Virus record (IMG/VR): IMGVR_UViG_3300045988_165964
Location: 1 to 41,547 of that record
Reading direction: 5' to 3' (one strand)
Length of the DNA: 41,547 nucleotides
DNA from: a virus
Within the stretch, counting starts at the first letter, position 1, and the number at the start of each line of letters is the position of its first letter. The position numbers were made by a program, and so were the translations under genes. Positions 7,445 through 35,586 of this stretch are shown here, piece after piece. Below the pieces are notes generated by a model. It ran no database searches. It was not told where the DNA came from and was given only the letters and a program-made list of their open reading frames with translations.

Positions 7445-7476
7445 AACCGCAGGCAGCCACGGCTCTTGCGGTTTTA
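7445..7476 (+). terminator. hairpin plus T-run after the major tail gene (attenuator/terminator)
   Basis: AACCGCA (7445-7451) pairs with TGCGGTT (7467-7473), with inner AGCC/GGCT pairing, followed by TTT. Confidence 0.5.
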
Positions 7477-7477
7477 T

Positions 7478-7552: not shown

Positions 7553-7572
7553 TAACTAAATAGGAGAGTCTT

Positions 7573-8225: not shown

Positions 8226-8246
8226 TTTTGTAGGAGGTGTAGACTA

Positions 8247-11826: not shown

Positions 11827-11836
11827 GGAGACAAGT

Positions 11837-12799
11837 ATGATAAAAATAGTCAGAGAGCCGAGTGATACTCCGAATATTCAAAATACGGATGATTTTGTCG
11901 GTTTAAGATATTCCTATGGTGACTATAATGGTTATGTAAATAATAAGGGGCAAATGCTTGCTTACCAAATCAACGGTTCTACTTTCAAAGTTCTGAGCGG
12001 TAGAGCGGTTGTAAATGGAGTAGAGGTAGATATAGATGCTAACGGAGCGAGCATAACCATCGATAATATATCTCAAACACAGGCGCACTCTTTGTATATC
12101 AGAGTTAATCTTGCTACAATGAAAGCAGATTTGTTTGATGTTATTGGGAACGATCTTCCTACGAGTGATGACTTAACTGCAAACACCGCAGGAATGGCTT
12201 ATTTGTTACTCTATACTTTTAATTCTACTGCTGGAGTTATCAGTGATGTAGTGAAAAAAGTTGAAAAAATTACAAGTCTTAAAGATGTTATTTCTGGAGT
12301 AGTTTTAGTAGAAAAAGCAAAGCATGCTGAAAAATCTGTGAATGCTGAACAGACTGATTTTACTAATGGTGAATGGCAGACAGGAGATCTGTATTTGACT
12401 GATAAAGACCTTGCCGAAGATTCTGTAAATGAGTATGAAATAAGAGTTAGAATTCCTATTCCAAGGATAGATAGTACATTAGGACTGGAAATTCCTGCAG
12501 ATGCTAATTATAGATACTATGCTGTAATTTCAAATATTATTTGTTTTCGTCGTCCGAGTGGACAATACTCTTCTCACACCAATCATTTTGCTGTTGGTTC
12601 TTATTGGCGTTTTGTAGATATTAACGAGGAAATAATGCTTTATGTTGGTCTGCAAGTTATGCCGAAAGAAAATGAAACTTATCCTGTAAAACTTAATTAC
12701 ACGGCTTTGCGTCTTGATTTAGACAATTCTACAAATAATAAGTTCGAACTATTTGGTTCTTCTCCCTATATAGAAATGATATGGCGTCGTATAAAATAA
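11837..12799 (+). CDS. tail fibre / baseplate protein, unknown family
   Basis: 320 aa, SD AAGGAGA. Its N-terminal ~140 aa are weakly similar in pattern to the N-terminus of the next protein. Confidence 0.45.
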   Translation: MIKIVREPSDTPNIQNTDDFVGLRYSYGDYNGYVNNKGQMLAYQINGSTFKVLSGRAVVNGVEVDIDANGASITIDNISQTQAHSLYIRVNLATMKADLFDVIGNDLPTSDDLTANTAGMAYLLLYTFNSTAGVISDVVKKVEKITSLKDVISGVVLVEKAKHAEKSVNAEQTDFTNGEWQTGDLYLTDKDLAEDSVNEYEIRVRIPIPRIDSTLGLEIPADANYRYYAVISNIICFRRPSGQYSSHTNHFAVGSYWRFVDINEEIMLYVGLQVMPKENETYPVKLNYTALRLDLDNSTNNKFELFGSSPYIEMIWRRIK

Positions 12800-12809
12800 G
12801 GAGTTTATA

Positions 12810-14543
12810 ATGGCAATAAGAATTTTAACTAAAAACGGAGTTGAAAATACCAATATTGACGGTGCAAGAGATTGTAATTTCAATGCTGGTAATCGTGATG
12901 GTATTGTTAAAAGCGTACTCAAAGAGGGAAACTTCTTTTTGTCTTCTTCGAATGTAATTGCTCTTGATACCTGTGAGCTCCGTATATTCGGTCATAGAAT
13001 AGTTATAGACACTATTCAATACAAAACATTTTCTTCCGTCCCGACTACCCCTATACGCTATGCTCTTATAGGACAAATCATTATGACGGAGACTGTACCG
13101 TCTTTCTCCCTCATTGTTCAGTATGCTGAAAAGATACTGCAGAAAGATAACATCAATAATGGAAATGGGACTTACGAGGTTGAAATCGGAAGATTTACAC
13201 TTCAACCGAACGGAACGATTGTAGACCTTGTTCGTACCCTTGACATTATAACAGGCGGAACAGGGTCAGGAGACGGGAGCGGTCTTGAAATTGGTACGGT
13301 TACAACCAATACTCTTGCTGCGGGTTTAGATGCAGAAGTAGACATTGAAAATCGCTATGATGAGGAAAAGGGTAAAACCGTAACAGACTTTACATTCAGT
13401 ATTCCTCAGGGTGAGTCTCCTGATATAGCTACAAGTACTTTGAATGCTCTTGAGGCTAAACTCAATGAGAATATAGTCAAAGATCCGAGTAAGACTTATC
13501 TTACATGGCAAGGAGCAAGTTTCCCCTCTCCAGAAACAACTTTTACAGCTCCTGCTGGCTCAGTTATTGACTGGGGTGATGGTTCGGTTCAGACTTTTAC
13601 GATAGCAAGTACAACAACGCACTCTTACACAGATGGAATAGAATATCATTTGATATCTATTAAAGGATTGACTTCTATAGATGATAGTATGTTTATGAGT
13701 CAATCTGAACTCATAAGCATAACTCTTGGAAATGAAATAACTACACTCTATTTCAGTGCTTTTGAGTTTTGTTCAAATCTTATAAGTGTGATACTTCCAA
13801 ATAGCCTAACAGTCATCAATGGCTCAGCGTTTGCGAGTTGTTCAAAACTTATAGATATAAATATTCCTATAAGTGTGACTCATATTGGCAATTATGCTTT
13901 TGAATACTGCTCTGCTCTTACAAATATAGTGATTCCTGATAGTGTTACGGCTCTTGGGAGTCAAGTATTTAGAAATTGTAGTGGTCTTATTGAAGTTACA
14001 ATTCCAAAAAAACTTGCCACAATTCCGGCTGCAACTTTCATTGCTTGTAGCAGCCTTGAAACTATCCATGTTCGTAGGTCTAAGCCTGGTACACTTGGGG
14101 AAGATGCTATTCCTACTACGATTAAAAAGATTATTGTACCAAAAGCAAAAATAGCAGACTATAAGGCTGCTGCTGTATGGTCTACCTATGCTGATAAAAT
14201 TGTTTATGAAGTAGACAGTAGTGATTTATCGAGCGGTGGAAAGATTTACAGACACTTACTAAAATGTTCGAATTATAATAATGATAAGAGCTATAATATA
14301 GTAGCCTATTCATCTAAAAGTGATGCTATAACCAGTGACTATGTTTTGGCGAACCAAAATTGCCTGGTTGGGGCTATAAGTTCGGTATATAGTAATAACG
14401 AAGGAACGGTTATTTTCGATAGATTGATTACAGGTGTTGACCCTCATGGTCCTCCAGGAGGATATTTCGGAATCCAGGCAGGAGCAGGATTTCCGACTAC
14501 TGAATATATTAAAATTGAATCCGATTCATTCGCAGCATTATAA
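12810..14543 (+). CDS. receptor-binding tail fibre with BspA-type leucine-rich repeats
   Basis: 577 aa. Fibre collar motif (GGTGSGDGSGLEIGTVTT...FTFSIPQGESPD) and IDWGDGS. About six ~23-aa repeats of the type AFxxCSxLxxIxIPxSVTxIG lie at aa ~286-445 (nt ~13665-14144). Confidence 0.75.
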   Translation: MAIRILTKNGVENTNIDGARDCNFNAGNRDGIVKSVLKEGNFFLSSSNVIALDTCELRIFGHRIVIDTIQYKTFSSVPTTPIRYALIGQIIMTETVPSFSLIVQYAEKILQKDNINNGNGTYEVEIGRFTLQPNGTIVDLVRTLDIITGGTGSGDGSGLEIGTVTTNTLAAGLDAEVDIENRYDEEKGKTVTDFTFSIPQGESPDIATSTLNALEAKLNENIVKDPSKTYLTWQGASFPSPETTFTAPAGSVIDWGDGSVQTFTIASTTTHSYTDGIEYHLISIKGLTSIDDSMFMSQSELISITLGNEITTLYFSAFEFCSNLISVILPNSLTVINGSAFASCSKLIDINIPISVTHIGNYAFEYCSALTNIVIPDSVTALGSQVFRNCSGLIEVTIPKKLATIPAATFIACSSLETIHVRRSKPGTLGEDAIPTTIKKIIVPKAKIADYKAAAVWSTYADKIVYEVDSSDLSSGGKIYRHLLKCSNYNNDKSYNIVAYSSKSDAITSDYVLANQNCLVGAISSVYSNNEGTVIFDRLITGVDPHGPPGGYFGIQAGAGFPTTEYIKIESDSFAAL

Positions 14544-14600
14544 TCATGGACACGGCAAAAAGAATTTGAAGTTAATCAGACTAAAAAGGAGTATAGAACT

Positions 14601-14936
14601 ATGGGACTTAAAAGATCAAATTATGAAGTAAAGAACATGGGAGTTACGCTCCCACAAGCGTATGCAGTAATTCGCAAACTCAATATAAACGATGACTATG
14701 GAACGGCAGAATTAGTGGTTCAGGCAAATCGTGAATTAGCATTTGATAAAGACCCTTATGAAACTGTAAATATTTTTTTCAAAGTCAATCGTAATGAAAA
14801 CCCATACAAGACTGCTTATGCAAAGGCAAAAGAAAAAACTCTATCTACGATTGTAGATCCTAAAACACAGGAGGAGACTATTGTAGAGAGTAAAATGCCA
14901 TTTGCTGATTGGGAAGATGATTTGATTATTGAATGA
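14601..14936 (+). CDS. hypothetical protein
   Basis: 111 aa, SD AAAAAGGAG 9 nt upstream. Confidence 0.6.
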   Translation: MGLKRSNYEVKNMGVTLPQAYAVIRKLNINDDYGTAELVVQANRELAFDKDPYETVNIFFKVNRNENPYKTAYAKAKEKTLSTIVDPKTQEETIVESKMPFADWEDDLIIE

Positions 14937-14982
14937 GTGAATACTCACTACAATAAAATCTAAAAAGGAGGATATAATTACT

Positions 14983-15222
14983 ATGGCACAGTATAAAGTA
15001 ATTGACGGTGTACTCTATCAATCGGTTGACACTGCTGCTATAAGAGACAGGATGAATTCCGTCGTGGAACAAGTCCGTCCTTATAAAGATGGCATCCAAC
15101 AGTGTGAAAACCAGATTCGTGAGTACAAAGAACAAATTGCTACAATCGTTCAATCAAGTGGGTTGAATCGTGAAGTAGTAAGAGCTCTTGACCCCGAAAA
15201 AGCAGATTTTTTGGGACTTTAA
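14983..15222 (+). CDS. hypothetical protein
   Basis: 79 aa, SD AAAAGGAGG. A weak hairpin (15221-15236) follows. Confidence 0.6.
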   Translation: MAQYKVIDGVLYQSVDTAAIRDRMNSVVEQVRPYKDGIQQCENQIREYKEQIATIVQSSGLNREVVRALDPEKADFLGL

Positions 15223-15305
15223 GTGAATCTTCACTTATGAATTTTATTCTACTTATAGCGAAAGTCATTTTGAAATATTTCAAATTATAAAGGAGGCAAT
15301 TCCAT

Positions 15306-15866
15306 ATGGAGCAAATTTTCGCTTATATTGACACTTACGGTCTACTCGTAGTCATTGCGGGTTTGCTTGCTTCTATGCTTTGCGGTTGCATTAAAATTCC
15401 GATTGTAAAAGCAATTAAAAAGAAGAATCTTGGAGAAAAGGCTACCTCTAACAGGATAACGACGGTTTGTACACTTATTGTAGCAGTATTCAGTATACTG
15501 ATTATTGTAGCATACACTTGTATTAAAGCACACTCGTTTGCTCCTCTGATGACGGTAGAATTGTATTCGGATATCTTGCTTGCAATTACTTTTGCTAAAA
15601 TTGCTTATATGCTTTACGAGGGTGTTGGGGAAATTTCTATCAAGAAATGGATGCATCAACTCTTTACGGCGATAGCGGAAAAATCTCGCAACAATAAAGC
15701 ATCTACGGTTCAGGACTATGTAGATATCGTTCAATCGGTTCTTACTGATACCTTACATATGCCTCTTACAGATGCCCAAAAAGAGACTTTGAAACAATCT
15801 TTGAAGAAACAAGCACCTGTAACCGAAGAAAAGCAAGAAGAAACTGATGACGGAGAAAAAGTATAA
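15306..15866 (+). CDS. membrane protein, putative holin
   Basis: 186 aa, SD AAAGGAGG. Three predicted TM helices (LLVVIAGLLASMLCGCI, VCTLIVAVFSILIIVAYTCI, ILLAITFAKIAYMLY) and a charged C-terminus. Located after the tail fibres. Confidence 0.5.
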   Translation: MEQIFAYIDTYGLLVVIAGLLASMLCGCIKIPIVKAIKKKNLGEKATSNRITTVCTLIVAVFSILIIVAYTCIKAHSFAPLMTVELYSDILLAITFAKIAYMLYEGVGEISIKKWMHQLFTAIAEKSRNNKASTVQDYVDIVQSVLTDTLHMPLTDAQKETLKQSLKKQAPVTEEKQEETDDGEKV

Positions 15867-16449
15867 TTCTCCCAAGACGGTGTTTTGGGCAGGGATGTTT
15901 TATATGTTCCTGCTCTCAACACTGACGGCTTTCATATTTCATTTTGTAGGACTAAAATGGTTTGAATGTACTGTTAAAATAAAAGAGCCGAGCATAGTCC
16001 TACAGAAATTGATTAAAGCTGCTTTGAAGATATTTGAATTGGTGTTTGTTTTCAAAATACTGATTCGAAAGTCTTTTCTAAGATGTATCATTTTAGCTAC
16101 GATACAAGTTGTTACAATAGGGTTTATACCTATACATTATCAAGCCTATGTGGATATCGGTTACACCGTGTTGTGTATTCTATTATTACGGAAACATAGA
16201 TTTGACGGTTTGATAGATTACATTGCTCTATTTATTCTTATGAATTTATACTCCCTCGTGTTTGTGGTCGCACGGTTTGGAGGAATAGTCCCTGATGTAG
16301 CAGAATCTTTCTATACAGGCATTGCTTCTGTTATAGACTATAAACTCTTTATTGTAACGCTGTATATGTATATCAAATATAAAGGAGGGATAAAATTATG
16401 GAAAATGAAAAGAAGAATTTTTCAGATCAACAGAGACCCAGAGATGTAA
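15847..16449 (+). CDS. polytopic membrane protein
   Basis: 200 aa with at least 5 hydrophobic helices. Start uncertain (15847 or 15895). Confidence 0.5.
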   Translation: MTEKKYNSPKTVFWAGMFYMFLLSTLTAFIFHFVGLKWFECTVKIKEPSIVLQKLIKAALKIFELVFVFKILIRKSFLRCIILATIQVVTIGFIPIHYQAYVDIGYTVLCILLLRKHRFDGLIDYIALFILMNLYSLVFVVARFGGIVPDVAESFYTGIASVIDYKLFIVTLYMYIKYKGGIKLWKMKRRIFQINRDPEM

Positions 16450-16577
16450 AAGACTGGGATACAAATCATTGTCCTTGGTTTATTTTCGGGGATGAAGATG
16501 CTGCTAATTATGATCTTGAAAAAGTCAAATCTTGGTTTACCAAAAAATTTGGTAAAAAGAAAAAGAGGAGGATGTAG
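16398..16577 (+). CDS. small basic protein (59 aa), not in the ORF track
   Basis: ATG at 16398 follows AAAGGAGGGATAAAATT. MENEKKNFSDQQRPRDVKDWDTNHCPWFIFGDEDAANYDLEKVKSWFTKKFGKKKKRRM. Its TAG overlaps the GTG of the next gene (TAGTG). Confidence 0.5.
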   Translation: MENEKKNFSDQQRPRDVKDWDTNHCPWFIFGDEDAANYDLEKVKSWFTKKFGKKKKRRM

Positions 16578-16903
16578 TGTTTGCTAAAATTTACAAGTAC
16601 TCTATGTTCCTTGGAATTGTTGCTATTCTTACAGGTATAGCCTATTGTATGAATTCTGTTGTAGAATTATACACAATGCTTATCAGTTTTCTTATAGCAA
16701 AACAGCGGTATAAATACAAATTCCATTGTAAGTCTTTCAATTTTGATGAGATAGATGAGGAAATAGTTATACAAAGGCTCATTTATCATCTTAAAGGGAA
16801 AGACCTATATGATAAAATAGGCTATTCAAAACCTCAAATGATAAGACGGGAACAAAGGATAGAGTCCATCTTGAAAATACCGTTAAAACGCTATACAAAA
16901 TAA
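16577..16903 (+). CDS. small membrane protein
   Basis: 108 aa, GTG start after AAGAGGAGGATG. Two N-terminal TM helices. Confidence 0.5.
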   Translation: MFAKIYKYSMFLGIVAILTGIAYCMNSVVELYTMLISFLIAKQRYKYKFHCKSFNFDEIDEEIVIQRLIYHLKGKDLYDKIGYSKPQMIRREQRIESILKIPLKRYTK

Positions 16904-16907
16904 TACT

Positions 16908-16955
16908 AAACCCCGCAAAGATACCTTTACGATACCTCTGCGGGGTTTTCTTTTC
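16908..16955 (+). terminator. rho-independent terminator
   Basis: CCCCGCA (16911-16917) pairs with TGCGGGG (16939-16945), followed by TTTTCTTTT. The loop contains a GATACCT direct repeat. Confidence 0.6.
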
Positions 16956-16999
16956 GGTTTATCCTCGTATACTAATACTGAAAATAGGAGGTGGGCGTG

Positions 17000-17455
17000 A
17001 TGTATAGTCCTTATCAGTTTAATAATTCAATGCCGACGGCAACACAACCTTACGGATATCCGATGTCACCTTATATAGGGAATCCTCAACAGGCTCAACC
17101 GATACAACAACCACAAATGAATACCAACAAGATATTTGTAAGCGGTATAGAAGAAGTCAAGATGAAAATGCTCCCTCCGAATAGTGAGTTTGTTTATCTT
17201 GATAATGAAAAGTCTATTCTCTATCAAAAGACAGTAGATAGTACAGGACATTTTGAAGTGCGAGCATTTGATATAACCGAGCACAAGGAACAGAAACCTG
17301 CTGAAAACGCTCAAACGATAGATACCCAAGACCTTGTAAGCCGTAAAGACTTTGACAGTCTCAAGGCTGAGTTCATTGCTCTGAGAGATAAAATAAAAGG
17401 TAATTATGGAAGAGGAAATCAAGAGACAAATAGATCTTCTGAAGAAAGAAAATAA
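17000..17455 (+). CDS. Q/P/Y-rich N-terminus protein, unknown function
   Basis: ATG at 17000 lies 8 nt after AGGAGG. N-terminus YSPYQFNNSMPTATQPYGYPMSPYIGNPQQAQPIQQPQ, followed by a globular part. Confidence 0.6.
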   Translation: MYSPYQFNNSMPTATQPYGYPMSPYIGNPQQAQPIQQPQMNTNKIFVSGIEEVKMKMLPPNSEFVYLDNEKSILYQKTVDSTGHFEVRAFDITEHKEQKPAENAQTIDTQDLVSRKDFDSLKAEFIALRDKIKGNYGRGNQETNRSSEERK

Positions 17456-19606: not shown

Positions 19607-19948
19607 TTAGAATTTTATAAAAGGCTTGTCGAGGTAAACCGCAGGAAGATTTTTATCATCTATGTAAAAGTCACAGAATATTTTACGGGTATCTCCTCCC
19701 CATTGGTCTTGTATCTCCGGAAGATTTTCATTTACAGCGTCAAAGATGAGTCCTCTTTCTTTACACCATTCTACAGCTGCGTCGAGGTGATTACCGTAAC
19801 GGTCATTTCTACGAGAAGTCCAAAGAATAATCTTATGTCCCATTTTTTTGAGCTGCTTTACATTATCTATACGGGCAGGAATTTCTTCCCCAATAGAGGG
19901 GAATCTATCCGTACAAAGAGTTCCATCAAAGTCTATTGCGTAGATCAT
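19607..19948 (-). CDS. small HAD-superfamily phosphatase (deoxynucleotidase-like)
   Basis: 113 aa. DxDxT motif IDFDGT, motif II WTSR, motif IV YIDDK. SD AAGGAGG. Confidence 0.7.
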   Translation of the reverse strand: MIYAIDFDGTLCTDRFPSIGEEIPARIDNVKQLKKMGHKIILWTSRRNDRYGNHLDAAVEWCKERGLIFDAVNENLPEIQDQWGGDTRKIFCDFYIDDKNLPAVYLDKPFIKF

Positions 19949-20268
19949 TTTGCCTCCTTGGTAAGTTCAATAGAAGTTAGATCTATCTGTTCAAGATTGG
20001 TGATACTCTCATAGAGAAGATCTACAAGAGCTGTTGCCCATTCGCCGATATCTTTGAAACCCTTTTTTCTGACTTCATTCTTGAATTTATGAATCGTGTC
20101 TTTATCTCGGAGTTCTCGGTGAGAAACCGTACACAATACCCTATACAGGGACATGCCTGTTTTTTCCTTGATCTTAGCAATAGCCTCTCTATGATCTTCT
20201 GGAATATAACAGATATGCGGATTCTCTCTCGGAGCCGAGATTTTAATTTTGTTTTTCTTTTCGTACAC
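19945..20268 (-). CDS. hypothetical protein
   Basis: 107 aa, GTG start 9 nt after GGGAGG. Confidence 0.5.
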   Translation of the reverse strand: MYEKKNKIKISAPRENPHICYIPEDHREAIAKIKEKTGMSLYRVLCTVSHRELRDKDTIHKFKNEVRKKGFKDIGEWATALVDLLYESITNLEQIDLTSIELTKEAK

Positions 20269-21070
20269 GCTCGTTTACCTCCCACAAGGCTTTTAACAAA
20301 GTATTCTTCGGTTCTGCTCCGTTAAGAATAGCCTCAATTTCTTCTTTACCTCCGTCTGTATAGTCCCATCCTCTTTCATCGAAATCATAGTCAGCAGAGT
20401 ATTCTACATTTTTATCCCAGTGTCTTTCATAAAGATGAAGATCACCAACAGTATGATAATACAATCCGGCAGGAAGACCGACTTCTTTGGCAACGATTTG
20501 TAATAAAACCGTGAAGAATCCCATATCATACGGCAACCCAAGCCATATGTCGTTTGACCGCATATAAGTGTGAAGATTGAGCTTACCGTTAAAGCAAGTA
20601 AATTGCAACAAGCAAGTACACGGTGTGTCTTTTGTCGGTTTATTGCTTGCTTCTTTAATATGTAATATGCACTGACGATCGTATGGATTCTTCTTGAGTT
20701 TATCTATACAATACTGTAATTGGTCAAACCCGAATTTATGGAAAATTCTGTAACCATAAGCAGAGTTCACGGTTTCACCATCATCAGATAAGTCATACCA
20801 CATTTTGGCATATTTGCCGATATCTTCAACCTTGTTAGATCCGCTGAGATACCACTGTATTTCACCAACAAGGTATCTAAGGCTCAAATTTCTTTGAGGG
20901 TTGAGACATACATTATGATAAGGGTTTGAAACGAGAAAAGTGATATCTGTAACATGTTTGGTTTTTCCGATACGGCTTACAACGGTTTCACCGAAGTCAG
21001 AAACAAAATTATAGGCTCTCTCAAAAGCATCTGTAACCGTATCACACGGAATTGTAGGAATCATAAGCAT
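20243..21070 (-). CDS. thymidylate-synthase-family deoxypyrimidine hydroxymethylase, predicted dCMP-specific
   Basis: Gapless match to ThyA over the core: NPYDRQCIL, TPCTCLLQF (Cys151), MRSNDIWLGLPYD, GDLHLYERH. Asp182 (codon 20525-20527) replaces the dUMP-specifying Asn. MRSND, PCT and NSAYGY resemble T4 dCMP hydroxymethylase, and the ThyA C-terminal tail is absent. Confidence 0.75.
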   Translation of the reverse strand: MLMIPTIPCDTVTDAFERAYNFVSDFGETVVSRIGKTKHVTDITFLVSNPYHNVCLNPQRNLSLRYLVGEIQWYLSGSNKVEDIGKYAKMWYDLSDDGETVNSAYGYRIFHKFGFDQLQYCIDKLKKNPYDRQCILHIKEASNKPTKDTPCTCLLQFTCFNGKLNLHTYMRSNDIWLGLPYDMGFFTVLLQIVAKEVGLPAGLYYHTVGDLHLYERHWDKNVEYSADYDFDERGWDYTDGGKEEIEAILNGAEPKNTLLKALWEVNERVRKEKQN

Positions 21071-21510
21071 AGTCCTGTATCTCCTTTAATAGTAATATAA
21101 TCAGCTCCTGACTCTCTGAGTAGTTGACTGTAAGAGCCTCGGATATTTTTGATCCATCTTTCCATATCAAATTTCATATGCGGATCTCCCTCCCCTCGGT
21201 TTATGAGTCTTTGAATAATAACCTCAGTAGGACAGTCTACATAGATCAATACGGTTTGAGTCTGCTTAAAGAATTCAATGAGTTCTTTAAGTTCTTGTTC
21301 AGTAAGTTTACGCTCCTCAGGTGAATTGTAGACAAACTGACCAAAGCAGAAACGGTCAAATACAACTCCCCCAGGGGTTAACATTTGTTTGTATTCTTCG
21401 AGTGTTCTTGGTGTACTTTCGTGCCAATAGTACAGATTGAATCTTTCACAAAGATAGTTAGCCAAGGTTGATTTACCCGTACCGTCACATCCCTCAATAA
21501 CAATATTCAT
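21061..21510 (-). CDS. dNMP (thymidylate-kinase-like) kinase
   Basis: 149 aa. P-loop IEGCDGTGKST is typical of Tmk-like kinases. SD GGAGG. Confidence 0.75.
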   Translation of the reverse strand: MNIVIEGCDGTGKSTLANYLCERFNLYYWHESTPRTLEEYKQMLTPGGVVFDRFCFGQFVYNSPEERKLTEQELKELIEFFKQTQTVLIYVDCPTEVIIQRLINRGEGDPHMKFDMERWIKNIRGSYSQLLRESGADYITIKGDTGLCL

Positions 21511-22357
21511 TTATGAGTTCCTCCAGTTCATTTTGAGATATCTTAATTCTTTTTACAGGAGCGTTCTTATGAACAAGTTTAAGAACAGGATGACCGTCTT
21601 TTCCCTCAGTTAGTTTAGTGTAAGTTCCACAATCATACTTTTTACAAAGTAACGGATAAAGATTATTTCTAATCTTATCATCTTTTTCTGTTTTACTACT
21701 AAAACATCTTGAGGGAAAATTCTCGACTGTAGACTTTGTAAGAATTTGAATTACTCCTACAGAATGTCCTTTTGAAATCGCTGAGATAGCATAGTTACAA
21801 TCTTCAAAATACTCATCGGTTTCCGGAAGATTCTCAAGCGGGTACTTTGCATTGACAATAAGTATATCATCAATTTGAGATATGTTCCCATTCAATTCAA
21901 CTACACAATCCGGAGTTACACCATTGGCAAAACCGCGAGGTCTAACGGAAAGTAATGCACAATCTGGATATCTATGAAATATTGCCTGAGAGATTTCTTC
22001 AAGTCTTGCTCTCATAGCATCTATGTGAGTTTCACAATAAGATTTTCCAGATATACAAGGCATTCTATTATAGAATTGAATATAGGATAACAAGGAAACC
22101 CTATCATCCATCTGAGCATAGAAGTCAGCTCCGAGCTTTCTCATATACTTATCTATATATCTTCGAGTTTCACCGATATTATGTACATCTTCTTCAATTG
22201 CTACAATTATAGCCTCGGGAAGATTTTTCCTGTAAAGTTCATATTGTTCTTTTCTTACAAAAAAGATAAAAGCATCTTTGAATGTAGAAAAAGAAATAAG
22301 GTTTCTATAGATAGGATTGTTCTCCCATCTATCCATACTCGGAATAGCTATAATCAT
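21494..22357 (-). CDS. GT-A-like glycosyltransferase, paralog 1 (candidate DNA-base glycosyltransferase)
   Basis: ATG at 22357 after GAGGGAG, ATGA overlap with the rSAM stop. Shares IPSxxR, VRKEQxxLY, IGETRRxI, the DD acidic motif and EDxNYA with 23249..24142. Confidence 0.5.
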   Translation of the reverse strand: MIIAIPSMDRWENNPIYRNLISFSTFKDAFIFFVRKEQYELYRKNLPEAIIVAIEEDVHNIGETRRYIDKYMRKLGADFYAQMDDRVSLLSYIQFYNRMPCISGKSYCETHIDAMRARLEEISQAIFHRYPDCALLSVRPRGFANGVTPDCVVELNGNISQIDDILIVNAKYPLENLPETDEYFEDCNYAISAISKGHSVGVIQILTKSTVENFPSRCFSSKTEKDDKIRNNLYPLLCKKYDCGTYTKLTEGKDGHPVLKLVHKNAPVKRIKISQNELEELINEYCY

Positions 22358-23256
22358 TTTTCCCACTCCCTCTTTCTGATATTTGAATACGGTGTTGTTC
22401 TGTAAGTTACAATCTCGTAGTCTCTTTGAGTAGGCTCAGGCAATGTTTCTTTTCCCATCCTATCGGGAAGAAGTCCGGGACGAACGGGAGAAGTTGCACA
22501 TATAGAGCAAGGATGAAAACAGCGTATACCTTGATAGAGAAACCGACGAGCTGATTCAAAACGAGGATGCATCCAGATATCAGCAATTTCCATTTCATTG
22601 ACATTGGCGATACCGTACTCACCTCTGAAGTCATCACAACATATTGCAATATTACCATCCCAGCGTACATACATTTCCCTGAACACTTTCGTACAACGAG
22701 CTTTTTTAGGCTCAGAAAGCGGAGGCATTCCAGCACCGCAGTGATTGGTAAGATTTCTTGCAATTGTCGGTTTTGCTAACTCGATAGGTGGGTTAAAACT
22801 GATAGACTTTTTATTCTCAAAAAGTTTAGATCCGTCCCCATATACTCTGTAGGCAATGTTGTTTTCCTTTAAGAATGCTTTGATGCTATCCAGAGTACTG
22901 TCTATGTACTCATCAAAGATAAGTTCTGTCACACCTGCGGTTAATAGCCATTCAAGATTTCGTATGTCTTTCAAAACACTATAGCCGTTGGTCATCATTA
23001 TGATGTTTACATTAGGAAGTTCTTTTCTAAGATAAGCAATCATATTCAAATGATCCGGATGTAAAGTGGGTTCACCGTGTCCTGCTAAAAGTATCTTGTA
23101 GTGCCAATCGGTTTTCTTAAGACTTTCAACCGTATGAACAAGCGTGTCAAACTCCATAAAACGGAGAGTCTTTTCAAGTCCGGAAGTGCCACAAAATTCA
23201 CAATGACGGTTACAACCTTGAGTAAATTCTATTTGTATTGTATTCGGTTTATACAT
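22354..23256 (-). CDS. radical SAM enzyme with SPASM/twitch-like C-terminal Cys domain
   Basis: CNRHCEFC (Cx3Cx2C, codons 23191-23214), then GHGEPTL. C-terminal part CTKVF..WDGNIAICCDDF...IADIW...CFHPCSIC. ATG at 23256 after GGAGA. Confidence 0.85.
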   Translation of the reverse strand: MYKPNTIQIEFTQGCNRHCEFCGTSGLEKTLRFMEFDTLVHTVESLKKTDWHYKILLAGHGEPTLHPDHLNMIAYLRKELPNVNIIMMTNGYSVLKDIRNLEWLLTAGVTELIFDEYIDSTLDSIKAFLKENNIAYRVYGDGSKLFENKKSISFNPPIELAKPTIARNLTNHCGAGMPPLSEPKKARCTKVFREMYVRWDGNIAICCDDFRGEYGIANVNEMEIADIWMHPRFESARRFLYQGIRCFHPCSICATSPVRPGLLPDRMGKETLPEPTQRDYEIVTYRTTPYSNIRKREWEK

Positions 23257-24142
23257 GGTATAATCTCCAATAATTCCAATCAAATTTTACTGATGGGAAT
23301 CCTGTTTTAGATTTTTTATACACTATGCCAGGATGACCAGCATAGAATTTTTTTGCTGTTTCAGTATACCACTGATATCTAAGGTTAGCATCCGATATAC
23401 CAGAAGCATTCTCACAACCGCCAGGGCAAGAATTGATAGCAGGGCAGTTGTATAACATGTCGGTTATCGTTAAAGCCTTTCCACCGTGGTACATGATTTC
23501 AAATTGTAAAGCATAATCTTCATTTCCGCATTCGTAGTTTGGTCTATAATTTATGCCGTACTCACGCATAAAATCTAAATTGAGCCATATACATTGTATA
23601 CAAGCAGAAGAATTTACTTTTTGCGGAGCGTTAGCATAATTCATATGCCAACTATCTGGACGATAGATAACGCTACTGATTGCGATTTGAGGATCACTTT
23701 GAAGATAGATGTAATACATCCACAATTTTAATTCATCTGTCCATCTTTTAGGAGGAGTTCCATAATGTAACGAAACTTTACGCATGGATTCTTTTCCTCC
23801 TGAAGTAATTGACGGGACAGTGTGCTCAAGTTCGGTTATATCATCGTCAAATAAAAAGATATTTGAATAGTACGGCATGCACTTTTCAATGATTTGACGC
23901 CTTGTTTCACCGATTTCAGTAACATTATCTAAATAGAGAAAACCAACTTTTCCCTCCCATTTTTTATAGAGATCAGCCTGTTCTCTTCGAATACATAAAA
24001 CAATCTTCAATTCAGGTTCAACTGAAAGTTGTTTAAGGATCTTAGGATCAGGACGGTTATAACTCGGAACAAAAATAGGCGGGACTTGATCATCGGTTAT
24101 AAGCTGTTTCGCTGTTTCGAAATATTGTTCACTTCTATACAT
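23249..24142 (-). CDS. GT-A-like glycosyltransferase, paralog 2 (candidate DNA-base glycosyltransferase)
   Basis: 297 aa. GT2-like N-terminal strand IFVPSYNRPD, IGETRRQI, and the acidic motif FDDDI. Confidence 0.55.
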   Translation of the reverse strand: MYRSEQYFETAKQLITDDQVPPIFVPSYNRPDPKILKQLSVEPELKIVLCIRREQADLYKKWEGKVGFLYLDNVTEIGETRRQIIEKCMPYYSNIFLFDDDITELEHTVPSITSGGKESMRKVSLHYGTPPKRWTDELKLWMYYIYLQSDPQIAISSVIYRPDSWHMNYANAPQKVNSSACIQCIWLNLDFMREYGINYRPNYECGNEDYALQFEIMYHGGKALTITDMLYNCPAINSCPGGCENASGISDANLRYQWYTETAKKFYAGHPGIVYKKSKTGFPSVKFDWNYWRLYHV

Positions 24143-24144
24143 TG

Positions 24145-24714
24145 TTAGTTTACTCCGTAATGATTATAAAGATCTGAAAGCAATTGTCTTGAAGATATTC
24201 GAATACAACAACATCCAGACTTTGTCAGATTGTTGAAAGAGTTATCAATTTGTCGTACCCTGCTACGGGTATTGTTCTCGTTCAATGGCTTGGTATTTCC
24301 TGCTTGAAGTCTTCTATTTTTTATATTCTCAATACATTTTTCGATAGGGGTATCAAGATAATAAAACACTGTATTTGCTTGAGGAGAAATACGGTTAGAA
24401 AAGTTAGACCATCTTGAAGATAGAGTAGAAACTAAAAGACCCTCAAAAATGACATTGTAACCGCCATTGAGAAGAGTTTGTATTCTTTCTTCAATCTCAT
24501 CTTGAGATCTAACCGTATCACATCCTCCACAAGCATTGTAATATGAGCCTACAATTGCCCAGCCATTTCTGGAATTGTAATATCCGAGTATTTTTCCGGA
24601 AGAGTCTTTCCACTCATTCCAATCTTCTAATGAAAGAAGTTGATGAATAATGTAAGATTTACCACTTCCGGAAGTTCCTCGTATATTTATAACAATTTGC
24701 TTAGAATGTTCCAT
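24145..24714 (-). CDS. small P-loop kinase (candidate DNA 5-hydroxymethylpyrimidine kinase)
   Basis: 189 aa. Walker A GTSGSGKS (24655-24678) and Walker B-like VIFEG. The role assignment rests on gene context. Confidence 0.5.
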   Translation of the reverse strand: MEHSKQIVINIRGTSGSGKSYIIHQLLSLEDWNEWKDSSGKILGYYNSRNGWAIVGSYYNACGGCDTVRSQDEIEERIQTLLNGGYNVIFEGLLVSTLSSRWSNFSNRISPQANTVFYYLDTPIEKCIENIKNRRLQAGNTKPLNENNTRSRVRQIDNSFNNLTKSGCCCIRISSRQLLSDLYNHYGVN

Positions 24715-25660
24715 ATGTTACAAATTCCTTATATTTCTCTTTACGAATACCTTTCCAACCGTTTAATTCTCCCAAAATCTCATGAGGGACATTTTTATAT
24801 CTAATCTCAAATAATTGATTCCATATGTAATCAAATTCAGGAAGAACTTTCTTGTAAGTATTTAATTCTTGTAATCTTCTGTCTGTATAATATTCCAGAT
24901 ATCTAATTTGTTTATACAATTTGAAATAGCTACATAAATATCCTACAATTCTTGCAAAGTTTGTCTTATATCCCAATTTATTCTCTGTATAGATTATTAT
25001 TTGTTGTAAGAGATATTCTAATTCTTTTATTTCTGATTTAGTGAGATTTCTACCTTGTTTTCTGATTTCATAAGCCAAATCATCACGATAAGAAATAACA
25101 AAGATAGATTGTGCACAGGTCTTGCAAGAATTCCAATCAAGATATGCTTCAGGAGTTAGGTCTAACCCCAAAAAATTATAAACAGATTCCATAAACAATA
25201 GAGCTGAAAATCTTCCACAGTAATAAATTGAAGTAAACCAATTATACAAAGCCGTTTGAGATTGATTTATCAAAGACATAATGACTTCATATTGCGAACG
25301 GTTATCAATTTTATTTTGATAAGAAGATACAATTGAAACAAACTTATCATTTTGTTTTACCCAGCGTCTGTCCGATTGAAATATCAATCTATCTTTATAG
25401 ATATTCCAAAATTCAGTCAATTTATCAATTGTTGCATCTTTGATTGAGGGAAATATTCGTAATAGTAAAGCTGATGTTGTTACAGAGTAACATGTCGAAT
25501 ACAAAAAAGATGCCCATATCTTAGACTCATTGTCATTACCTTGACAAAAATGTAAAAGATTATCCTCATCCCTGTCGTTTTGATTTTTTCGCTTAGAATA
25601 AAATCTCACAAACATATCTATTCGAAAACTCTTGTAATCATCATTAGGAATATTGTACAT
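24701..25660 (-). CDS. large helical protein, candidate aGPT-Pplase-like base transferase
   Basis: 319 aa, translationally coupled to the P-loop kinase gene. Assignment by context and vague motif memory only. Confidence 0.35.
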   Translation of the reverse strand: MYNIPNDDYKSFRIDMFVRFYSKRKNQNDRDEDNLLHFCQGNDNESKIWASFLYSTCYSVTTSALLLRIFPSIKDATIDKLTEFWNIYKDRLIFQSDRRWVKQNDKFVSIVSSYQNKIDNRSQYEVIMSLINQSQTALYNWFTSIYYCGRFSALLFMESVYNFLGLDLTPEAYLDWNSCKTCAQSIFVISYRDDLAYEIRKQGRNLTKSEIKELEYLLQQIIIYTENKLGYKTNFARIVGYLCSYFKLYKQIRYLEYYTDRRLQELNTYKKVLPEFDYIWNQLFEIRYKNVPHEILGELNGWKGIRKEKYKEFVTYGTF

Positions 25661-25664
25661 GTTA

Positions 25665-26249
25665 TTATTTCATCCACGGAGGAAGATTACCCTGAGGAGC
25701 GTTGTTAGCAGGAGCAGCTTTTTGCATCCACGGAGGAAGATTACCCTGAGGTGCTTGAGTAGCCTGAGGAATTTCCTGCTGAATCGGTTGAGGCTGTACA
25801 GGAGCGGGAGCTACGGGTTGCTGAGGCATAACCTGTTGAACAGGAGTTTCAACCGCAGGAGCAGTATACGGAGCCTCAGCCGTGGTATTTGCCAGTTTCG
25901 ATACTCTGGTAATAACTTGCTTGGTGTTATCGTTTAAGTCGGGTTCTACGGTTATCTGACAGGTTTTACCGATGATAGCCTTGGTGTTCAGTTTGATTCT
26001 TCCCTCACAAGGGATGCCGATACATTCAAGAAAACCTTTGACTTTCCACAAAGCCTGAGGAAGAAGATTGTACCACATTTTACGGGTTGCTCCGTCAGCG
26101 GTTTCAAAGGTTACTTCGAGTTGATCCGAGCCTGTAGATGCTTTGCTGAATTGAGCATCTTTTACTCTTACCGTGTGAATTCCTTCCGGAATGTAGTTAG
26201 TGCTTTCGACTCCTGTGAAGTCAAGATCCATAACAGAATAATTTGCCAT
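25665..26249 (-). CDS. DUF669-like ssDNA-binding protein with P/Q-rich tail
   Basis: 194 aa, SD AAGGAGA. Lies downstream of a Sak4-like ATPase. The N-terminal OB-size domain is followed by a low-complexity PQ tail ending in a duplicated APQGNLPPWM motif. Confidence 0.6.
   Translation of the reverse strand: MANYSVMDLDFTGVESTNYIPEGIHTVRVKDAQFSKASTGSDQLEVTFETADGATRKMWYNLLPQALWKVKGFLECIGIPCEGRIKLNTKAIIGKTCQITVEPDLNDNTKQVITRVSKLANTTAEAPYTAPAVETPVQQVMPQQPVAPAPVQPQPIQQEIPQATQAPQGNLPPWMQKAAPANNAPQGNLPPWMK
25671..25751 (-). repeat. 27-bp direct repeat x2 (period 54 bp) encoding PQGNLPPWM twice
   Basis: CATCCACGGAGGAAGATTACCCTGAGG occurs at 25671-25697 and 25725-25751, identical copies. Confidence 0.95.
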
Positions 26250-30435: not shown

Positions 30436-30924
30436 TCAGTTATTTGTATCAGTTTCATCACAATTCCAATCTGCTATATGAATAACTTCTACTCCGTTAT
30501 CTTCGAATAGTTTAGCAGCATTTTCTGAAATAGGAAATTCTCTACCATAGACAACGGTTTTGATACCCGCAGATACAAGAGCATAGGCACAATTATCACA
30601 GGGATAACGAGTAACAAAAGCCGTAGCTCCTTTCAACTGTTCTTTACGCTCTTTAGGAACATGTAAAAGAGCATCAACCTCACTGTGTATAACTTTACAA
30701 ATTTCCCTATGTTCTTTAGAATTATCCCCGAAAAGTTTTACTCGTAAACAACCATCTTCTTTACAGTTTGTTCCACGGTTAGCACCCTTGGCTAAGACTG
30801 TACGCCAAGCAGTCTCTTCTATAAGATAACAGCCCACTGCGGTTTTAGTACAGGTTGTATTGTTTTTAGCATAATTGTCAGCAAGTGTCAAAATGTTTTT
30901 CATTTGACCTTTGGTGTATCTCAT
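30436..30924 (-). CDS. dCMP deaminase-family (CDA-fold) zinc deaminase
   Basis: 162 aa. HSEVDAL (H-x-E) and PCDNC (PCxxC) zinc motifs. Confidence 0.85.
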   Translation of the reverse strand: MRYTKGQMKNILTLADNYAKNNTTCTKTAVGCYLIEETAWRTVLAKGANRGTNCKEDGCLRVKLFGDNSKEHREICKVIHSEVDALLHVPKERKEQLKGATAFVTRYPCDNCAYALVSAGIKTVVYGREFPISENAAKLFEDNGVEVIHIADWNCDETDTNN

Positions 30925-30926
30925 AT

Positions 30927-31940
30927 TTATCTCTCCTTTGGGATATATTTATTTCTTGGTCTTCCCGTATTTGTTACCGCTCGGATATATTTACTGATTT
31001 CACAATGGCAATTCTGTAATGACATTACATTCATATAACGATCCTCTTTAGGAAGATCAGTGAATATTTCATCAGGATTCCACGGAAGTTCCAACCAATT
31101 ACAAATATCAACCCAATGATCCCTCAGCCAAAAAAGACTTTCTGCATAAGACATACCATCTTTATTTTTGAATATAAGATCAAGACTTCTACGAGCTCCG
31201 GGACCTGCTACAACGAATTCATTCTCACTCCACAATGATTCCGGACAATAAGTTACATCAACAAAAATTTGATATGCCAAGAAATAGCCTATTCCGTCAA
31301 GCGTTTGTAAAGTGTTAACAAACTCTTCCGCCGTTGTACAATTTCCCAAAGTTGCTATGAAATCTTCTTTATGATATAATTCTTCTATGTAGCGTATGAC
31401 CGCATATATGGGTTTGACTCCTTTCATCGGATCATAATAGGAAGAAATATATCCCAAAGCAGCACACATAGCACGCTTTACACCGCCTGTATTGAAAGCG
31501 TTTGTAAAGAAAGCATAATCATTTGGTTTACTTTCTACATATGTATGTATTTTATCCCAGTCAACTCCATTATCAAAATTGATGGGCATAAATTGCTTAC
31601 AAGTTTCACTTTTATTGATAACTCTAAAGAGAATCAAGTTACAGATTTTACTCGCCCAGCTCATAGCATCCTCAGGAATAGAGCATATATTATCTATAAC
31701 CCAACGAGTCTCACGATCATGTTCTCTACGAACATTTGTAAACCTATATTCTTGAAGAATAGGGTTATTTGTCCACGGAGCAGGACGCTTTTCAACATCT
31801 TTAAGAATATGAATTTTGTAGCGTTCTGTTACCCATGTATAGAGATGTTTGAAATTTTCTTCATTAATCTCTGCTTCGGCTTTTAAGATCCTATCTTTGT
31901 TACATCCCAAGTATGGAATATCATTTTGCTTATTGAGCAT
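30927..31940 (-). CDS. large helical protein, candidate aGPT-Pplase1-like DNA base hypermodification enzyme
   Basis: ATG at 31940 after GGAGA. The motif PAPWTNNPILQEYRFTNVRREHDRETRW and a later AGPGARRSL recall the family annotated as DNA base hypermodification proteins. From memory only. Confidence 0.45.
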   Translation of the reverse strand: MLNKQNDIPYLGCNKDRILKAEAEINEENFKHLYTWVTERYKIHILKDVEKRPAPWTNNPILQEYRFTNVRREHDRETRWVIDNICSIPEDAMSWASKICNLILFRVINKSETCKQFMPINFDNGVDWDKIHTYVESKPNDYAFFTNAFNTGGVKRAMCAALGYISSYYDPMKGVKPIYAVIRYIEELYHKEDFIATLGNCTTAEEFVNTLQTLDGIGYFLAYQIFVDVTYCPESLWSENEFVVAGPGARRSLDLIFKNKDGMSYAESLFWLRDHWVDICNWLELPWNPDEIFTDLPKEDRYMNVMSLQNCHCEISKYIRAVTNTGRPRNKYIPKER

Positions 31941-32142
31941 TTTTATCTCCTTCCTTGGTATAATTTTCACATAAGGTTATTATTCTCAATATAGAACACA
32001 AAGCTCCATAATCTTGATAGCAACCTTTACTGATTCCTTTAGAACACAGTTCATCTACGGTATTCTTAAAAGTATTGTAACCTTGTCCTGTTGTGTCTTT
32101 GAATTGATCTAACTCTTTTGTTAATTCTTCAATATTGTTCAT
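31930..32142 (-). CDS. hypothetical protein
   Basis: 70 aa, ATGA-type coupling to the upstream gene. Confidence 0.5.
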   Translation of the reverse strand: MNNIEELTKELDQFKDTTGQGYNTFKNTVDELCSKGISKGCYQDYGALCSILRIITLCENYTKEGDKNAQ

Positions 32143-34747: not shown

Positions 34748-34907
34748 AAGGAAATTTCCTCCTTTTTATACTATTCGTCAATTCACGAACATAACATTGG
34801 TAGTAATCTTTCTTCTTGCAAAGATATATACAATCATAACAACTATTACAACCTTTACGATCACGAATAACTCTTACACCATGTTTATACACTTGTATTG
34901 ATTTCAT
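34704..34907 (-). CDS. small Cys-rich protein
   Basis: 67 aa, SD GGGAGG, ATGA overlap with the MazG-like stop. Contains CNSCYDCIYLC...C. Confidence 0.5.
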   Translation of the reverse strand: MKSIQVYKHGVRVIRDRKGCNSCYDCIYLCKKKDYYQCYVRELTNSIKRRKFPYDNTTCEDFESKEQ

Positions 34908-35380: not shown

Positions 35381-35586
35381 TTTTGAAACTCCTTATAATA
35401 TTTACAAGTATCTTCGTCTTCATCTGAAACCAGAGTACAAACGCAGACCCCATTTAATTTATTAGCGCAATTATAGCAGGAAATATTGTACATACACTCT
35501 CCATCAGAGTTTGATATACCCCAATAGCAGTCTATACATTGTTTGGCAAACTTTTTTTCTCTTACATCGGTTAATGTGTTCCCCAT
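35377..35586 (-). CDS. small Cys-rich protein
   Basis: 69 aa, SD GGAG. About 10 Cys (CIDC, C..C..C, CVC). Confidence 0.5.
   Translation of the reverse strand: MGNTLTDVREKKFAKQCIDCYWGISNSDGECMYNISCYNCANKLNGVCVCTLVSDEDEDTCKYYKEFQK

Follow-up and report, generated by a model that had tools for sequence, protein, structure and literature searches.

A Predicted Composite Pyrimidine-Hypermodification Operon with a Radical SAM Gene in a Human-Gut Phage

The 41,547-nucleotide viral sequence IMGVR_UViG_3300045988_165964 of IMG/VR (hereafter the window, meaning the whole stretch of DNA that was analyzed) carries an island of nine contiguous minus-strand genes at 19607–25660, numbered here as genes 1–9 by increasing coordinate. 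In our preferred reading, which is tentative and held with slightly less than even confidence, the island serves a human-gut phage of about 41.5 kb as a composite operon for pyrimidine hypermodification, in which 5-hydroxymethylcytosine (5hmC) feeds two branches: one consisting of glycosyltransferases (GTs) and a BtrN-like radical S-adenosylmethionine (SAM) enzyme, and the other of a 5-HMUDK-family kinase and an amino-acid:DNA transferase (ADDT). By gene content, the island is the union of two separable modules, because sister phages fill the same slot with either module or with both. One or two modified bases that have not been described before are probably present in the phage DNA. The TAGT, 5-HMUDK, and aGPT-Pplase families, to which several of the products belong, were reportedly defined by Iyer et al. 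in 2013.

In the proposed pathway, the thymidylate synthase (TS) homolog (gene 3) would, to judge from its residue signatures, convert dCMP to 5-hydroxymethyl-dCMP. The Tmk-like kinase (gene 4) and host NDP kinase would raise this product to the triphosphate, and the phage PolA would incorporate it, following the logic of T4, while a MazG-like pyrophosphatase and a dCMP deaminase would shape the nucleotide pools. After replication, two TAGT/JGT-like enzymes with a GT-A fold (genes 5 and 7) would transfer sugars from host UDP-sugars to 5-hydroxymethyl groups, as their family, fold, and gene neighborhood suggest, and the radical SAM enzyme (gene 6) would oxidize or epimerize a sugar carbinol of the DNA-linked glycan. 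The result would be an unusual sugar obtained without a phage nucleotide-sugar pathway and possibly serving as acceptor for the second transferase. In the other, parallel branch, the 5-HMUDK-family kinase (gene 8) would phosphorylate other 5-hydroxymethyl groups, and the Cys-dependent ADDT (gene 9) would swap the phosphate for an amino acid or amine. The predicted DNA thus contains glycosylated 5hmC mixed with amino-acid-substituted 5-methylcytosine. 5hmC is proposed as the substrate of both branches because the sole hydroxymethylase of this apparently complete genome looks to be of the cytosine type and the kinase and TAGT modules share a slot in sister phages.

Gene Content of the Island and of Sister Phages

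A preliminary description of this DNA, made from its letters alone, reported nine contiguous and translationally coupled genes. All nine genes were confirmed: neighboring open reading frames (ORFs) overlap by 4–35 nt or are separated by a 2-nt gap, and genes called independently on a 41,512-bp human-gut metagenome contig in ENA, nearly identical to the window, are the same nine. Profile searches against Pfam, PHROG, and NCBIfam, by which families were assigned, recovered all of the families predicted in that description, with gene 2 remaining without a match. Promoter and terminator scans gave chance-level results and are uninformative on operon structure, and megablast of the island against GenBank phages returned no match. 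An identical copy of the ADDT protein occurs on 12 contigs. Bases 1–33 of the window correspond to an Illumina TruSeq adapter (TGACTGGAGTTCAGACGTGTGCTCTTCCGATCT) and bases 41515–41547 to its reverse complement; neither is phage DNA. As both ends are adapter, the window is probably a complete linear phage genome whose contig reaches the physical ends. Its plus-strand arm is structural (TerL, portal, capsid, and a BspA-type leucine-rich-repeat protein), and its minus-strand arm bears replication and modification genes, the island lying near SSB and PolA.

Sister gut phages (loci labeled with L numbers) have a common backbone consisting of PolA, helicase, deaminase, primase, exonuclease, Sak4, SSB, a variable slot, Tmk, a TS homolog with Asp177, a small uncharacterized protein, and a HAD-type protein. 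The slot contains a TAGT gene only in L179 and L178, TAGT-radical SAM in L097, and TAGT-radical SAM-TAGT in L098 and L099. It contains ADDT and kinase genes only in L180 (also in L014–L020, L027, L028, L041, and L042), ADDT-kinase-TAGT in L182 and L010, and all five genes in the window. A union of kinase/ADDT with TAGT is therefore seen in at least three lineages (the window, L010, and L182), which are about 50–65% identical to one another. As side observations, L178 encodes a 1051-aa PolA-SNF2 helicase fusion (737–3892) and, between primase and exonuclease, a PAPS-reductase-family protein (6296–7141).

Because the modules also occur apart in sister phages, the end product is more likely to be two distinct modified bases than one. 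The preliminary description had proposed one final base, probably novel, from a combination not characterized as a pathway. No paper or cultured phage with this combination was found, which agrees with its novelty, but a single base is now considered less likely than two. The literature search, which found no paper joining TAGT, radical SAM/SPASM, and 5-HMUDK, did not reach Iyer et al. (2013) for a radical SAM neighbor.

A single base would result if the modules acted in one linear pathway, with the kinase and ADDT adding a hydroxyl amino acid (e.g., serine, as with ViI O-SerT) and TAGT and the radical SAM enzyme then glycosylating and tailoring the adduct, to give one large glyco-amino-acid base. 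All five genes are contiguous, overlapping, and in one operon, and the ADDT-kinase-TAGT order recurs in the three lineages just named, which favors this scheme. However, the modules work separately in sister phages with the same hydroxymethylase (L099 and L179 versus L180), and the acceptor of characterized phage TAGT/GT-A enzymes is the 5-hydroxymethyl group itself, which makes the linear pathway very improbable.

Hydroxymethylase, Glycosyltransferases, and Radical SAM Enzyme

The TS homolog has the catalytic Cys146, aligned within TPCTCLLQF, and Asp in place of E. coli Asn177 (LPYDMGFF versus LPFNIASY). In the same alignment, Asn177 is present in the dUMP hydroxymethylases of PaMx11 and SP10, whose activity has been validated, and the top PDB matches of the TS homolog include MilA and L. 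casei TS 1njc, which has Asp at this position. It also has Asp three residues ahead of the Cys (KDTPC), as do PaMx11 and SP10, HMMER and MAFFT placing this residue one column apart, and it retains Asp169 (RSND). In the TS superfamily, Asn177 to Asp indicates a preference for dCMP, an acidic residue at the Leu143 position admits water and leads to a hydroxymethyl rather than a methyl product, and Asp169 to Asn marks the 5-hydroxy-dCMP synthases (Lee et al., 2026, PMC13326640). The TS homolog is accordingly predicted from these residues to be a 5-hydroxymethyl-dCMP synthase, in keeping with the cytosine specificity that the preliminary description had suggested. Since Asp169 is kept, 5hmC is predicted rather than 5-hydroxycytosine, and an RB69-like 5-hydroxycytosine pathway was rejected. 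The Asn177 that characterizes dUMP hydroxymethylases of the SPO1, SP10, and M6 type is replaced by Asp, and no second TS homolog was found in the window. Among cultured phages, Agathobaculum phage AB434P2 has the closest TS homolog, which is the only gene in common with the window.

The genes around the TS homolog are conserved to different extents. The Tmk-like kinase gene is always directly upstream of it in relatives. A small HAD gene comes after it in almost every related locus, regardless of the post-replicative module; the HAD protein matches phrog_24386 (1e-33) and, under the cut-off, NCBIfam NF046079 (BT0820-type; 1.2e-30). A similar HAD gene adjoins the TS homolog in DLP3 and RB69 (PMC13326640). 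Gene 2 (107 aa) is found between the TS homolog and the HAD gene in the closest relatives only (L011, L098, and L099).

Some database labels would fit ordinary nucleotide metabolism, with a plain thymidylate synthase, nucleotide kinases, host-surface GTs, and no DNA modification: in NCBIfam and PHROG, the TS homolog is called "thymidylate synthase" and the kinase, by a misnomer, "terminase small subunit." This explanation is hardly credible. Every NCBIfam TS score is far under its curated cut-off, Asp177 together with Asp at −3 is incompatible with dTMP synthesis by the rules of PMC13326640, the DNA-modification families TAGT, HMUDK, ADDT, and HMUDK_hel of Pfam are all matched, and the genes are located in the replication arm by SSB and PolA.

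Genes 5 and 7 are assigned to the TAGT family. Gene 5 matches PF20691 with 44.4 bits (cut-off, 27.5), whereas gene 7 scores 22.3 bits, below that cut-off, most of its 91 homolog clusters carrying PF20691. The gene 7 motifs GETRR, FDDD, and NEDY correspond to the canonical R...DDD...EDY. Those of gene 5 (GETRR, MDDR, and FEDC) deviate at the third Asp and the aromatic residue, but the residues that are invariant in the family alignments (A2 and A5), namely Arg, Arg, Asp-Asp, and Asp, are all present. The preliminary description had called the two proteins paralogs; they are members of one family yet only distantly related, BLASTP aligning them over 38 residues (E = 7e-4). Because a search of the TAGT family profile against PDB sequences gave no match, a fold search was used. 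For gene 7, a 36-sequence alignment was built and structure prediction was run with database homologs; with the resulting AlphaFold model (pLDDT 94; pTM 0.92), Foldseek retrieved the GT-A enzymes RmlT, K4CP, ppGalNAcT2, and TarP at E values of 3e-6 to 1e-4, in agreement with the GT-A fold anticipated earlier. Gene 5 orthologs hold the same position in L098 and L099. Phage GT-A enzymes with an R..DD(D)..ED motif glycosylate 5hmC, with the 5-hydroxymethyl group as acceptor (Pyle et al., bioRxiv 10.1101/2023.12.21.572611). From family, fold, and conserved neighborhood, we infer that genes 5 and 7 encode TAGT/JGT-like DNA glycosyltransferases.

The radical SAM gene, whose likely start codon is the ATG at 23256, encodes a CX3CX2C motif (C24/C28/C31) that is invariant across 29 homologs. 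Also invariant are C197, C215, C259, and C262, which line up with the cysteines of the auxiliary cluster in BtrN (4m7t), the best solved relative (3e-11 with the single sequence and 4e-18 with the 29-member family profile; next match, 1e-8). The SPASM profile is matched at 5e-10, yet only five or six conserved non-core cysteines are present (C182, C197, C215, C216, C259, and C262), compared with seven in a full SPASM motif, by which two auxiliary clusters are bound. The family has at least 173 protein clusters, all from metagenome assemblies except for one NCBI record (a Candidatus Saccharibacteria assembly), and no cluster has a functional name beyond "radical SAM." In a tblastn search of 50,697 phage records, only seven weak matches were obtained (six Campylobacter phages and one fecal contig), with no close homolog in a cultured phage and no M6-like or SP10 record that would suggest likeness to the M6 gp53-type radical SAM isomerase.

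A TAGT gene adjoins the radical SAM gene in L001, L003, L011, L012, L013, L097, L098, and L099 as well as in the window, and sugar-tailoring genes lie among or beside the pair: a PIG-L deacetylase gene in L013, WbqC in L012, and a methyltransferase gene in L003. BtrN oxidizes a secondary alcohol of an aminocyclitol, both BtrN and anSME-type enzymes convert a carbinol to a carbonyl, and twitch enzymes related to BtrN epimerize or dehydrate sugars. Because of the likeness to BtrN and the constant TAGT neighbor, the radical SAM enzyme is assigned the putative role of tailoring a DNA-linked sugar.

Two loci with radical SAM homologs have distinct surroundings. In L013 (ENA ERZ27249106 NODE_486, 1–17017), the gene order is radical SAM, PIG-L deacetylase, TAGT, ParB, ParB, and a second radical SAM gene (445 aa), with a C5 DNA methyltransferase gene and a SAM synthetase gene upstream; TS and TET were not detected there. 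This locus may represent an oxygen-independent route to a glycosylated 5-methylpyrimidine derivative. In L012 (6551–8915), a TAGT-like ORF that Pfam does not flag, a WbqC-like protein gene, and a radical SAM homolog lie in a row flanked by genes for two ParB_N proteins; the locus resembles ParB-linked T-dioxygenase neighborhoods, although no dioxygenase or TS was detected.

These two loci bear on the possibility that the radical SAM enzyme acts on the base, either by converting 5-hydroxymethyl to 5-formyl or as an oxygen-independent substitute for TET/JBP that activates the 5-methyl group in an anaerobic gut host. Carbonyl formation from a carbinol by BtrN/anSME-type enzymes is consistent with this role, as is the occurrence of homologs with C5-methyltransferase, SAM synthetase, ParB, and TAGT (L013) or with ParB and TAGT (L012). 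However, in the window and in most relatives a TS-type hydroxymethylase already provides the hydroxymethyl group, the partner that never varies, a glycosyltransferase, depends on an intact hydroxyl, and sugar-tailoring genes (PIG-L, WbqC, and methyltransferase) are interleaved. Action on the base is therefore improbable, and tailoring of a DNA-linked sugar is the preferred role.

Substrate of the Kinase–ADDT Module

The kinase (gene 8) matches PF18748 with 34.4 bits (cut-off, 27), has a GTSGSGKS Walker A motif, and is 33–38% identical to PaMx11 gp49 and to kinases of M6-like phages; by family, it is a predicted kinase of 5-hydroxymethylpyrimidine in DNA. The ADDT gene overlaps the kinase gene by 14 nt. 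Its product matches PF18724 (31 bits; cut-off, 26.2), is 25–29% identical to the clade-2 Pplase of ViI-like phages, and keeps the catalytic Cys of PaMx11 gp46 (Cys247) within GYLCSYFK, this Cys being invariant in the window and all relatives. The earlier suggestion of a P-loop kinase working with a helical transferase, as known for thymidine hypermodification, is thus upheld at the level of families. Single-sequence PDB searches with the kinase, ADDT, and HMUDK_hel proteins returned nothing meaningful. As a side observation, phrog_800 and many RefSeq phage records, that of PaMx11 gp49 included, call the kinase family "terminase small subunit," which appears to be a propagated misannotation.

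When a kinase alignment was used as query, 80 kinase-bearing viral contigs were identified; a single-sequence kinase query found none. About 60 of the 80 carry a TS homolog with Asn177 (GANAV), and TAGT is present in none of these, whereas the pairing of an Asp177 TS homolog with the kinase is found, among the 80, only in the gut lineage of the window. The window did not reveal either of two sources of 5-hydroxymethyluracil (5hmU) for the kinase, namely an Asn177 hydroxymethylase and a T-dioxygenase: its TS homolog has Asp177, and Pfam scans of its larger ORFs detected no TET/JBP protein.

PaMx11 gp46 is a solved glycine:DNA transferase in which Glu243 and Thr244 ligate the metal that binds thymine O4. 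Val-Gly replaces this pair in the window ADDT, and Val-Gly or Ile-Gly is present in L180, L010, and L182. Glu or Gln occupies the Glu243 position in 45 of 46 homologs from Asn177 contexts versus 7 of 12 from Asp177 contexts (Fisher p ~1e-3, without phylogenetic correction).

Throughout this phage group, the HMUDK_hel gene is found directly upstream of that for the dCMP deaminase (window, 30436–31970; L010, 3148–4774; L179, 3192–4681), and the two also adjoin in L102. The preliminary description had placed the deaminase and this second helical protein in the hypermodification set together with MazG and PolA. All four were found elsewhere on the same arm, but the first two belong to a conserved backbone rather than to the kinase module, as L179 has both without kinase or ADDT. 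Because HMUDK_hel is present in L179 without the kinase, its role seems to be independent of the kinase, and its use as a marker of thymidine hypermodification was rejected on the same ground. M6 gp55, an HMUDK_hel homolog, is dispensable in vitro (PMC8989533). The dCMP deaminase gene is in the backbone of TAGT-only and kinase-only sister phages alike and is therefore not co-inherited with the kinase; a specific coupling of the deaminase to the kinase module was likewise rejected, since L097, L178, and L179 carry the deaminase without the kinase. A search of MazG against PDB sequences was uninformative as to dCTPase or dTTPase activity.

It is just short of an even call that the kinase and ADDT of the window lineage act on 5hmC. 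Three observations favor such retargeting: the kinase module occupies the TAGT slot of phages with the same hydroxymethylase; the deaminase and HMUDK_hel are backbone genes present without the kinase (L097, L178, and L179); and the window ADDT retains the Cys without the Glu-Thr ligands of O4-bound metal. The fuller proposal is doubtful as a whole: a kinase and ADDT retargeted from 5hmU to 5hmC, giving 5-phosphomethylcytosine and amino-acid- or amine-substituted cytosine (a kind of DNA base with no earlier description), would be combined with the first radical SAM tailoring of a DNA-attached sugar and with two hypermodified cytosines derived from one hydroxymethylase.

Several points weigh against the 5hmC reading. 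The chemistry of the island is deduced from genes alone, and remote homology (about 25% identity to BtrN) and gene neighborhood form the entire basis for the radical SAM role. Two enzyme systems vying for the same 5hmC would be unusual, and the encoded dCMP deaminase could yield 5-hydroxymethyl-dUMP. In the sole report on selectivity that was found, 5-HMUDK phosphorylates 5hmU, not 5hmC, in DNA (PMC6457204), and the products of characterized ADDTs are all thymidine derivatives (PMC8989533, PMC13458397). The Glu-Thr/Ser pair is retained in 7 of 12 Asp177-context ADDTs, so that the pocket change is not general. Moreover, the pattern used to collect the Asp177 TS set included YMRSNDIW and biases this set toward the clade of the window.

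The main rival is a two-base model, in which the deaminase turns part of the 5-hydroxymethyl-dCMP into 5-hydroxymethyl-dUMP, both nucleotides are phosphorylated and enter the DNA, the TAGT and radical SAM enzymes decorate 5hmC, and the kinase and ADDT act on 5hmU as in M6, ViI, and PaMx11, so that both pyrimidines are hypermodified from a single hydroxymethylase. The biochemistry to date is uracil-specific (the tested 5-HMUDK is specific for 5hmU and the known ADDT products derive from thymidine), the kinase resembles 5hmU-type kinases at 33–38% identity, and the deaminase gene lies 2 nt away from that of HMUDK_hel. 5-Hydroxymethyl-dCMP is a substrate of T-even and animal dCMP deaminases. In L016, L020, L027, and L028, whose ADDTs keep the Glu-Thr pair, the genes for ADDT, kinase, deaminase, and MazG form one contiguous group. 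However, the deaminase is equally present in the TAGT-bearing, kinase-less L097, L178, and L179, as it is in T4, and is thus not tied to the kinase module; the ADDT subgroup of the window is without the Glu-Thr pair; and a detour through 5-hydroxymethyl-dCMP would be unique to the window lineage, given the direct use of an Asn177 hydroxymethylase in about 60 other kinase contigs. The two-base model is on these grounds rather unlikely, and 5hmC as the common substrate is tentatively preferred.

Table 1. Genes of the island and related genes of the minus-strand arm, with the matches that identify them
Feature	Coordinates	Strand	Match or motif
Gene 1: small HAD-type phosphatase, 113 aa	19607–19948	−	BT0820/1xpj-like family; N-terminal DFDGT motif
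Gene 2: 107-aa protein, no assigned family	19945–20268	−	No match in Pfam, PHROG, NCBIfam
Gene 3: TS homolog, predicted 5-hydroxymethyl-dCMP synthase	20243–21070	−	Thymidylat_synt 7e-35 and residue signature
Gene 4: Tmk-like dNMP kinase, 149 aa	21061–21510	−	Thymidylate_kin 1.3e-11; dNK 7e-9; TIGR00041 6e-14
Gene 5: TAGT-family GT-A glycosyltransferase a, 287–290 aa	21494–22366	−	PF20691 2.4e-11; phrog_842 1.8e-12
Gene 6: BtrN-like radical SAM enzyme, twitch/SPASM domain, 300–309 aa	22354–23283	−	Radical_SAM 1e-13; SPASM 5e-10
Gene 7: TAGT-family GT-A glycosyltransferase b, 297 aa	23249–24142	−	PF20691 1.4e-4 (sub-cut-off); phrog_842 3e-11
Gene 8: 5-HMUDK-family P-loop kinase, 189 aa	24145–24714	−	PF18748 (HMUDK_HMUD1) 2.1e-8
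Gene 9: ADDT (= AADT, aGPT-Pplase clade 2), 319 aa	24701–25660	−	PF18724 2.6e-7
dCMP deaminase	30436–30924	−	dCMP_cyt_deam_1 1e-15; phrog_174 1.5e-26
HMUDK_hel/aGPT-Pplase clade 1 helical protein, 337–347 aa	30927–31970	−	PF18723 5.9e-56, 190 bits
MazG-like NTP pyrophosphatase, candidate dCTPase or dTTPase	34904–35380	−	Pfam MazG 5.9e-6; phrog_2245 3.6e-19
PolA: family A DNA polymerase with 3′–5′ exonuclease domain	35571–37334	−	DNA_pol_A 4e-83

Other genes of the window were also recorded. An SSB-like protein (25665–26249; phrog_378/3724) has a Pro/Gln-rich tail with two copies of APQGNLPPWM, the second at the extreme C-terminus. The start of the minus-strand arm (37383–38539) encodes a sigma-70-like factor (regions 2 and 4) and a second SSB-family protein. 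Within the structural arm there is a single tRNA gene, for tRNA-Gln (anticodon TTG; 7478–7552). A 577-aa BspA-type leucine-rich-repeat protein (LRR_5, 1.8e-50), encoded in the tail region (12810–14543) and having a counterpart in L179, may be a receptor-binding protein.

Significance and Relation to Known Systems

The hypermodifications of phage DNA govern how well it resists restriction enzymes, CRISPR, and type IV systems, and they have provided enzymes for epigenetic sequencing, such as 5-HMUDK and T4 BGT. Three features of the island are described in no paper that we found: a radical SAM enzyme paired with TAGT, two modules stacked within a single operon, and kinase chemistry coupled to a hydroxymethylase of the cytosine type. 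The radical SAM enzyme that accompanies DNA glycosyltransferases is widespread, although so far in metagenomes only, and may make rare sugars on DNA anaerobically. The kinase/transferase chemistry, so far known for thymidine only, is coupled in this lineage to a cytosine-type hydroxymethylase; a DNA kinase or transferase specific for 5hmC would serve as a valuable reagent and define a new class of bases. In addition, the swapping and stacking of modules in one slot of sister phages offers a compact system for recombination of anti-defense chemistry in the human gut.

The clusters for thymidine hypermodification in M6 and PaMx11 of Pseudomonas, ViI of Salmonella, PhiW-14 of Delftia, and SP10 of Bacillus (Lee et al., 2018, PMC5889632; Lee et al., 2021, PMC8989533; PMC11472151) resemble the island in that a 5-HMUDK kinase gene adjoins a gene for aGPT-Pplase2/ADDT with a catalytic Cys, and, as in the window, a clade-1 Pplase paralog, a TS-family hydroxymethylase, a dCMP deaminase, and PolA are encoded nearby. 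The PaMx11 gp46–gp51 cluster has a similar layout, and tailoring enzymes are embedded in such clusters. In contrast, the hydroxymethylase of M6-type clusters has Asn177 and that of the island Asp177; the island is without a pyridoxal-phosphate decarboxylase, a flavin adenine dinucleotide lyase, and an acetyltransferase; about 60 M6-type kinase clusters are without TAGT, whereas the island has two; and the island ADDT is without the Glu-Thr O4-metal ligands of PaMx11 gp46.

The T-even 5hmC pathway and the ThyS-/5mYOX-associated GT-A systems (bioRxiv 10.1101/2023.12.21.572611; Burke et al., 2021, PMC8256090) share with the window a dCMP-type TS homolog, a dNMP kinase, an NTP pyrophosphatase, a dCMP deaminase, and a phage polymerase. 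The ThyS-/5mYOX-associated GT-A enzymes act post-replicatively, as predicted for those of the island, and have R..DDD..EDY motifs like the island enzymes. The two transferases of the island are comparable to those behind the T2/T6 disaccharide, and this analogy suggests that a disaccharide may be formed here also. Unlike these pathways, the island has a BtrN-like radical SAM gene between its GT genes (radical SAM being unmentioned in bioRxiv 10.1101/2023.12.21.572611), has the added kinase and ADDT module, and is without phage nucleotide-sugar genes.

The RB69/DLP3 clusters for 5-hydroxy-dCMP synthesis and arabinosylation (PMC13326640) also encode a TS homolog, a Tmk-like kinase, GTs, and a small 1xpj/BT0820-like HAD protein, and their TS homologs have Asp177 and an acidic residue near the catalytic Cys, as in the island. 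They differ from the island in the Asp169-to-Asn change, in GT-B enzymes, and in arabinose-nucleotide genes; the island has Asp169 and GT-A enzymes, with no arabinose-nucleotide genes.

BtrN (4m7t) is the 2-deoxy-scyllo-inosamine dehydrogenase of butirosin biosynthesis. The phage radical SAM enzyme matches it over the full length of the profile and has in common with it the CX3CX2C motif and four auxiliary cysteines. It differs in overall sequence (about 25% identity), in two extra conserved cysteines (C182 and C216), and in a C-terminal extension of about 40 residues, and it is encoded in phage replication modules by DNA glycosyltransferase genes, with a putative DNA-linked glycan substrate for which no precedent was found. 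The GT and PIG-L deacetylase context in L013 parallels aminoglycoside pathways.

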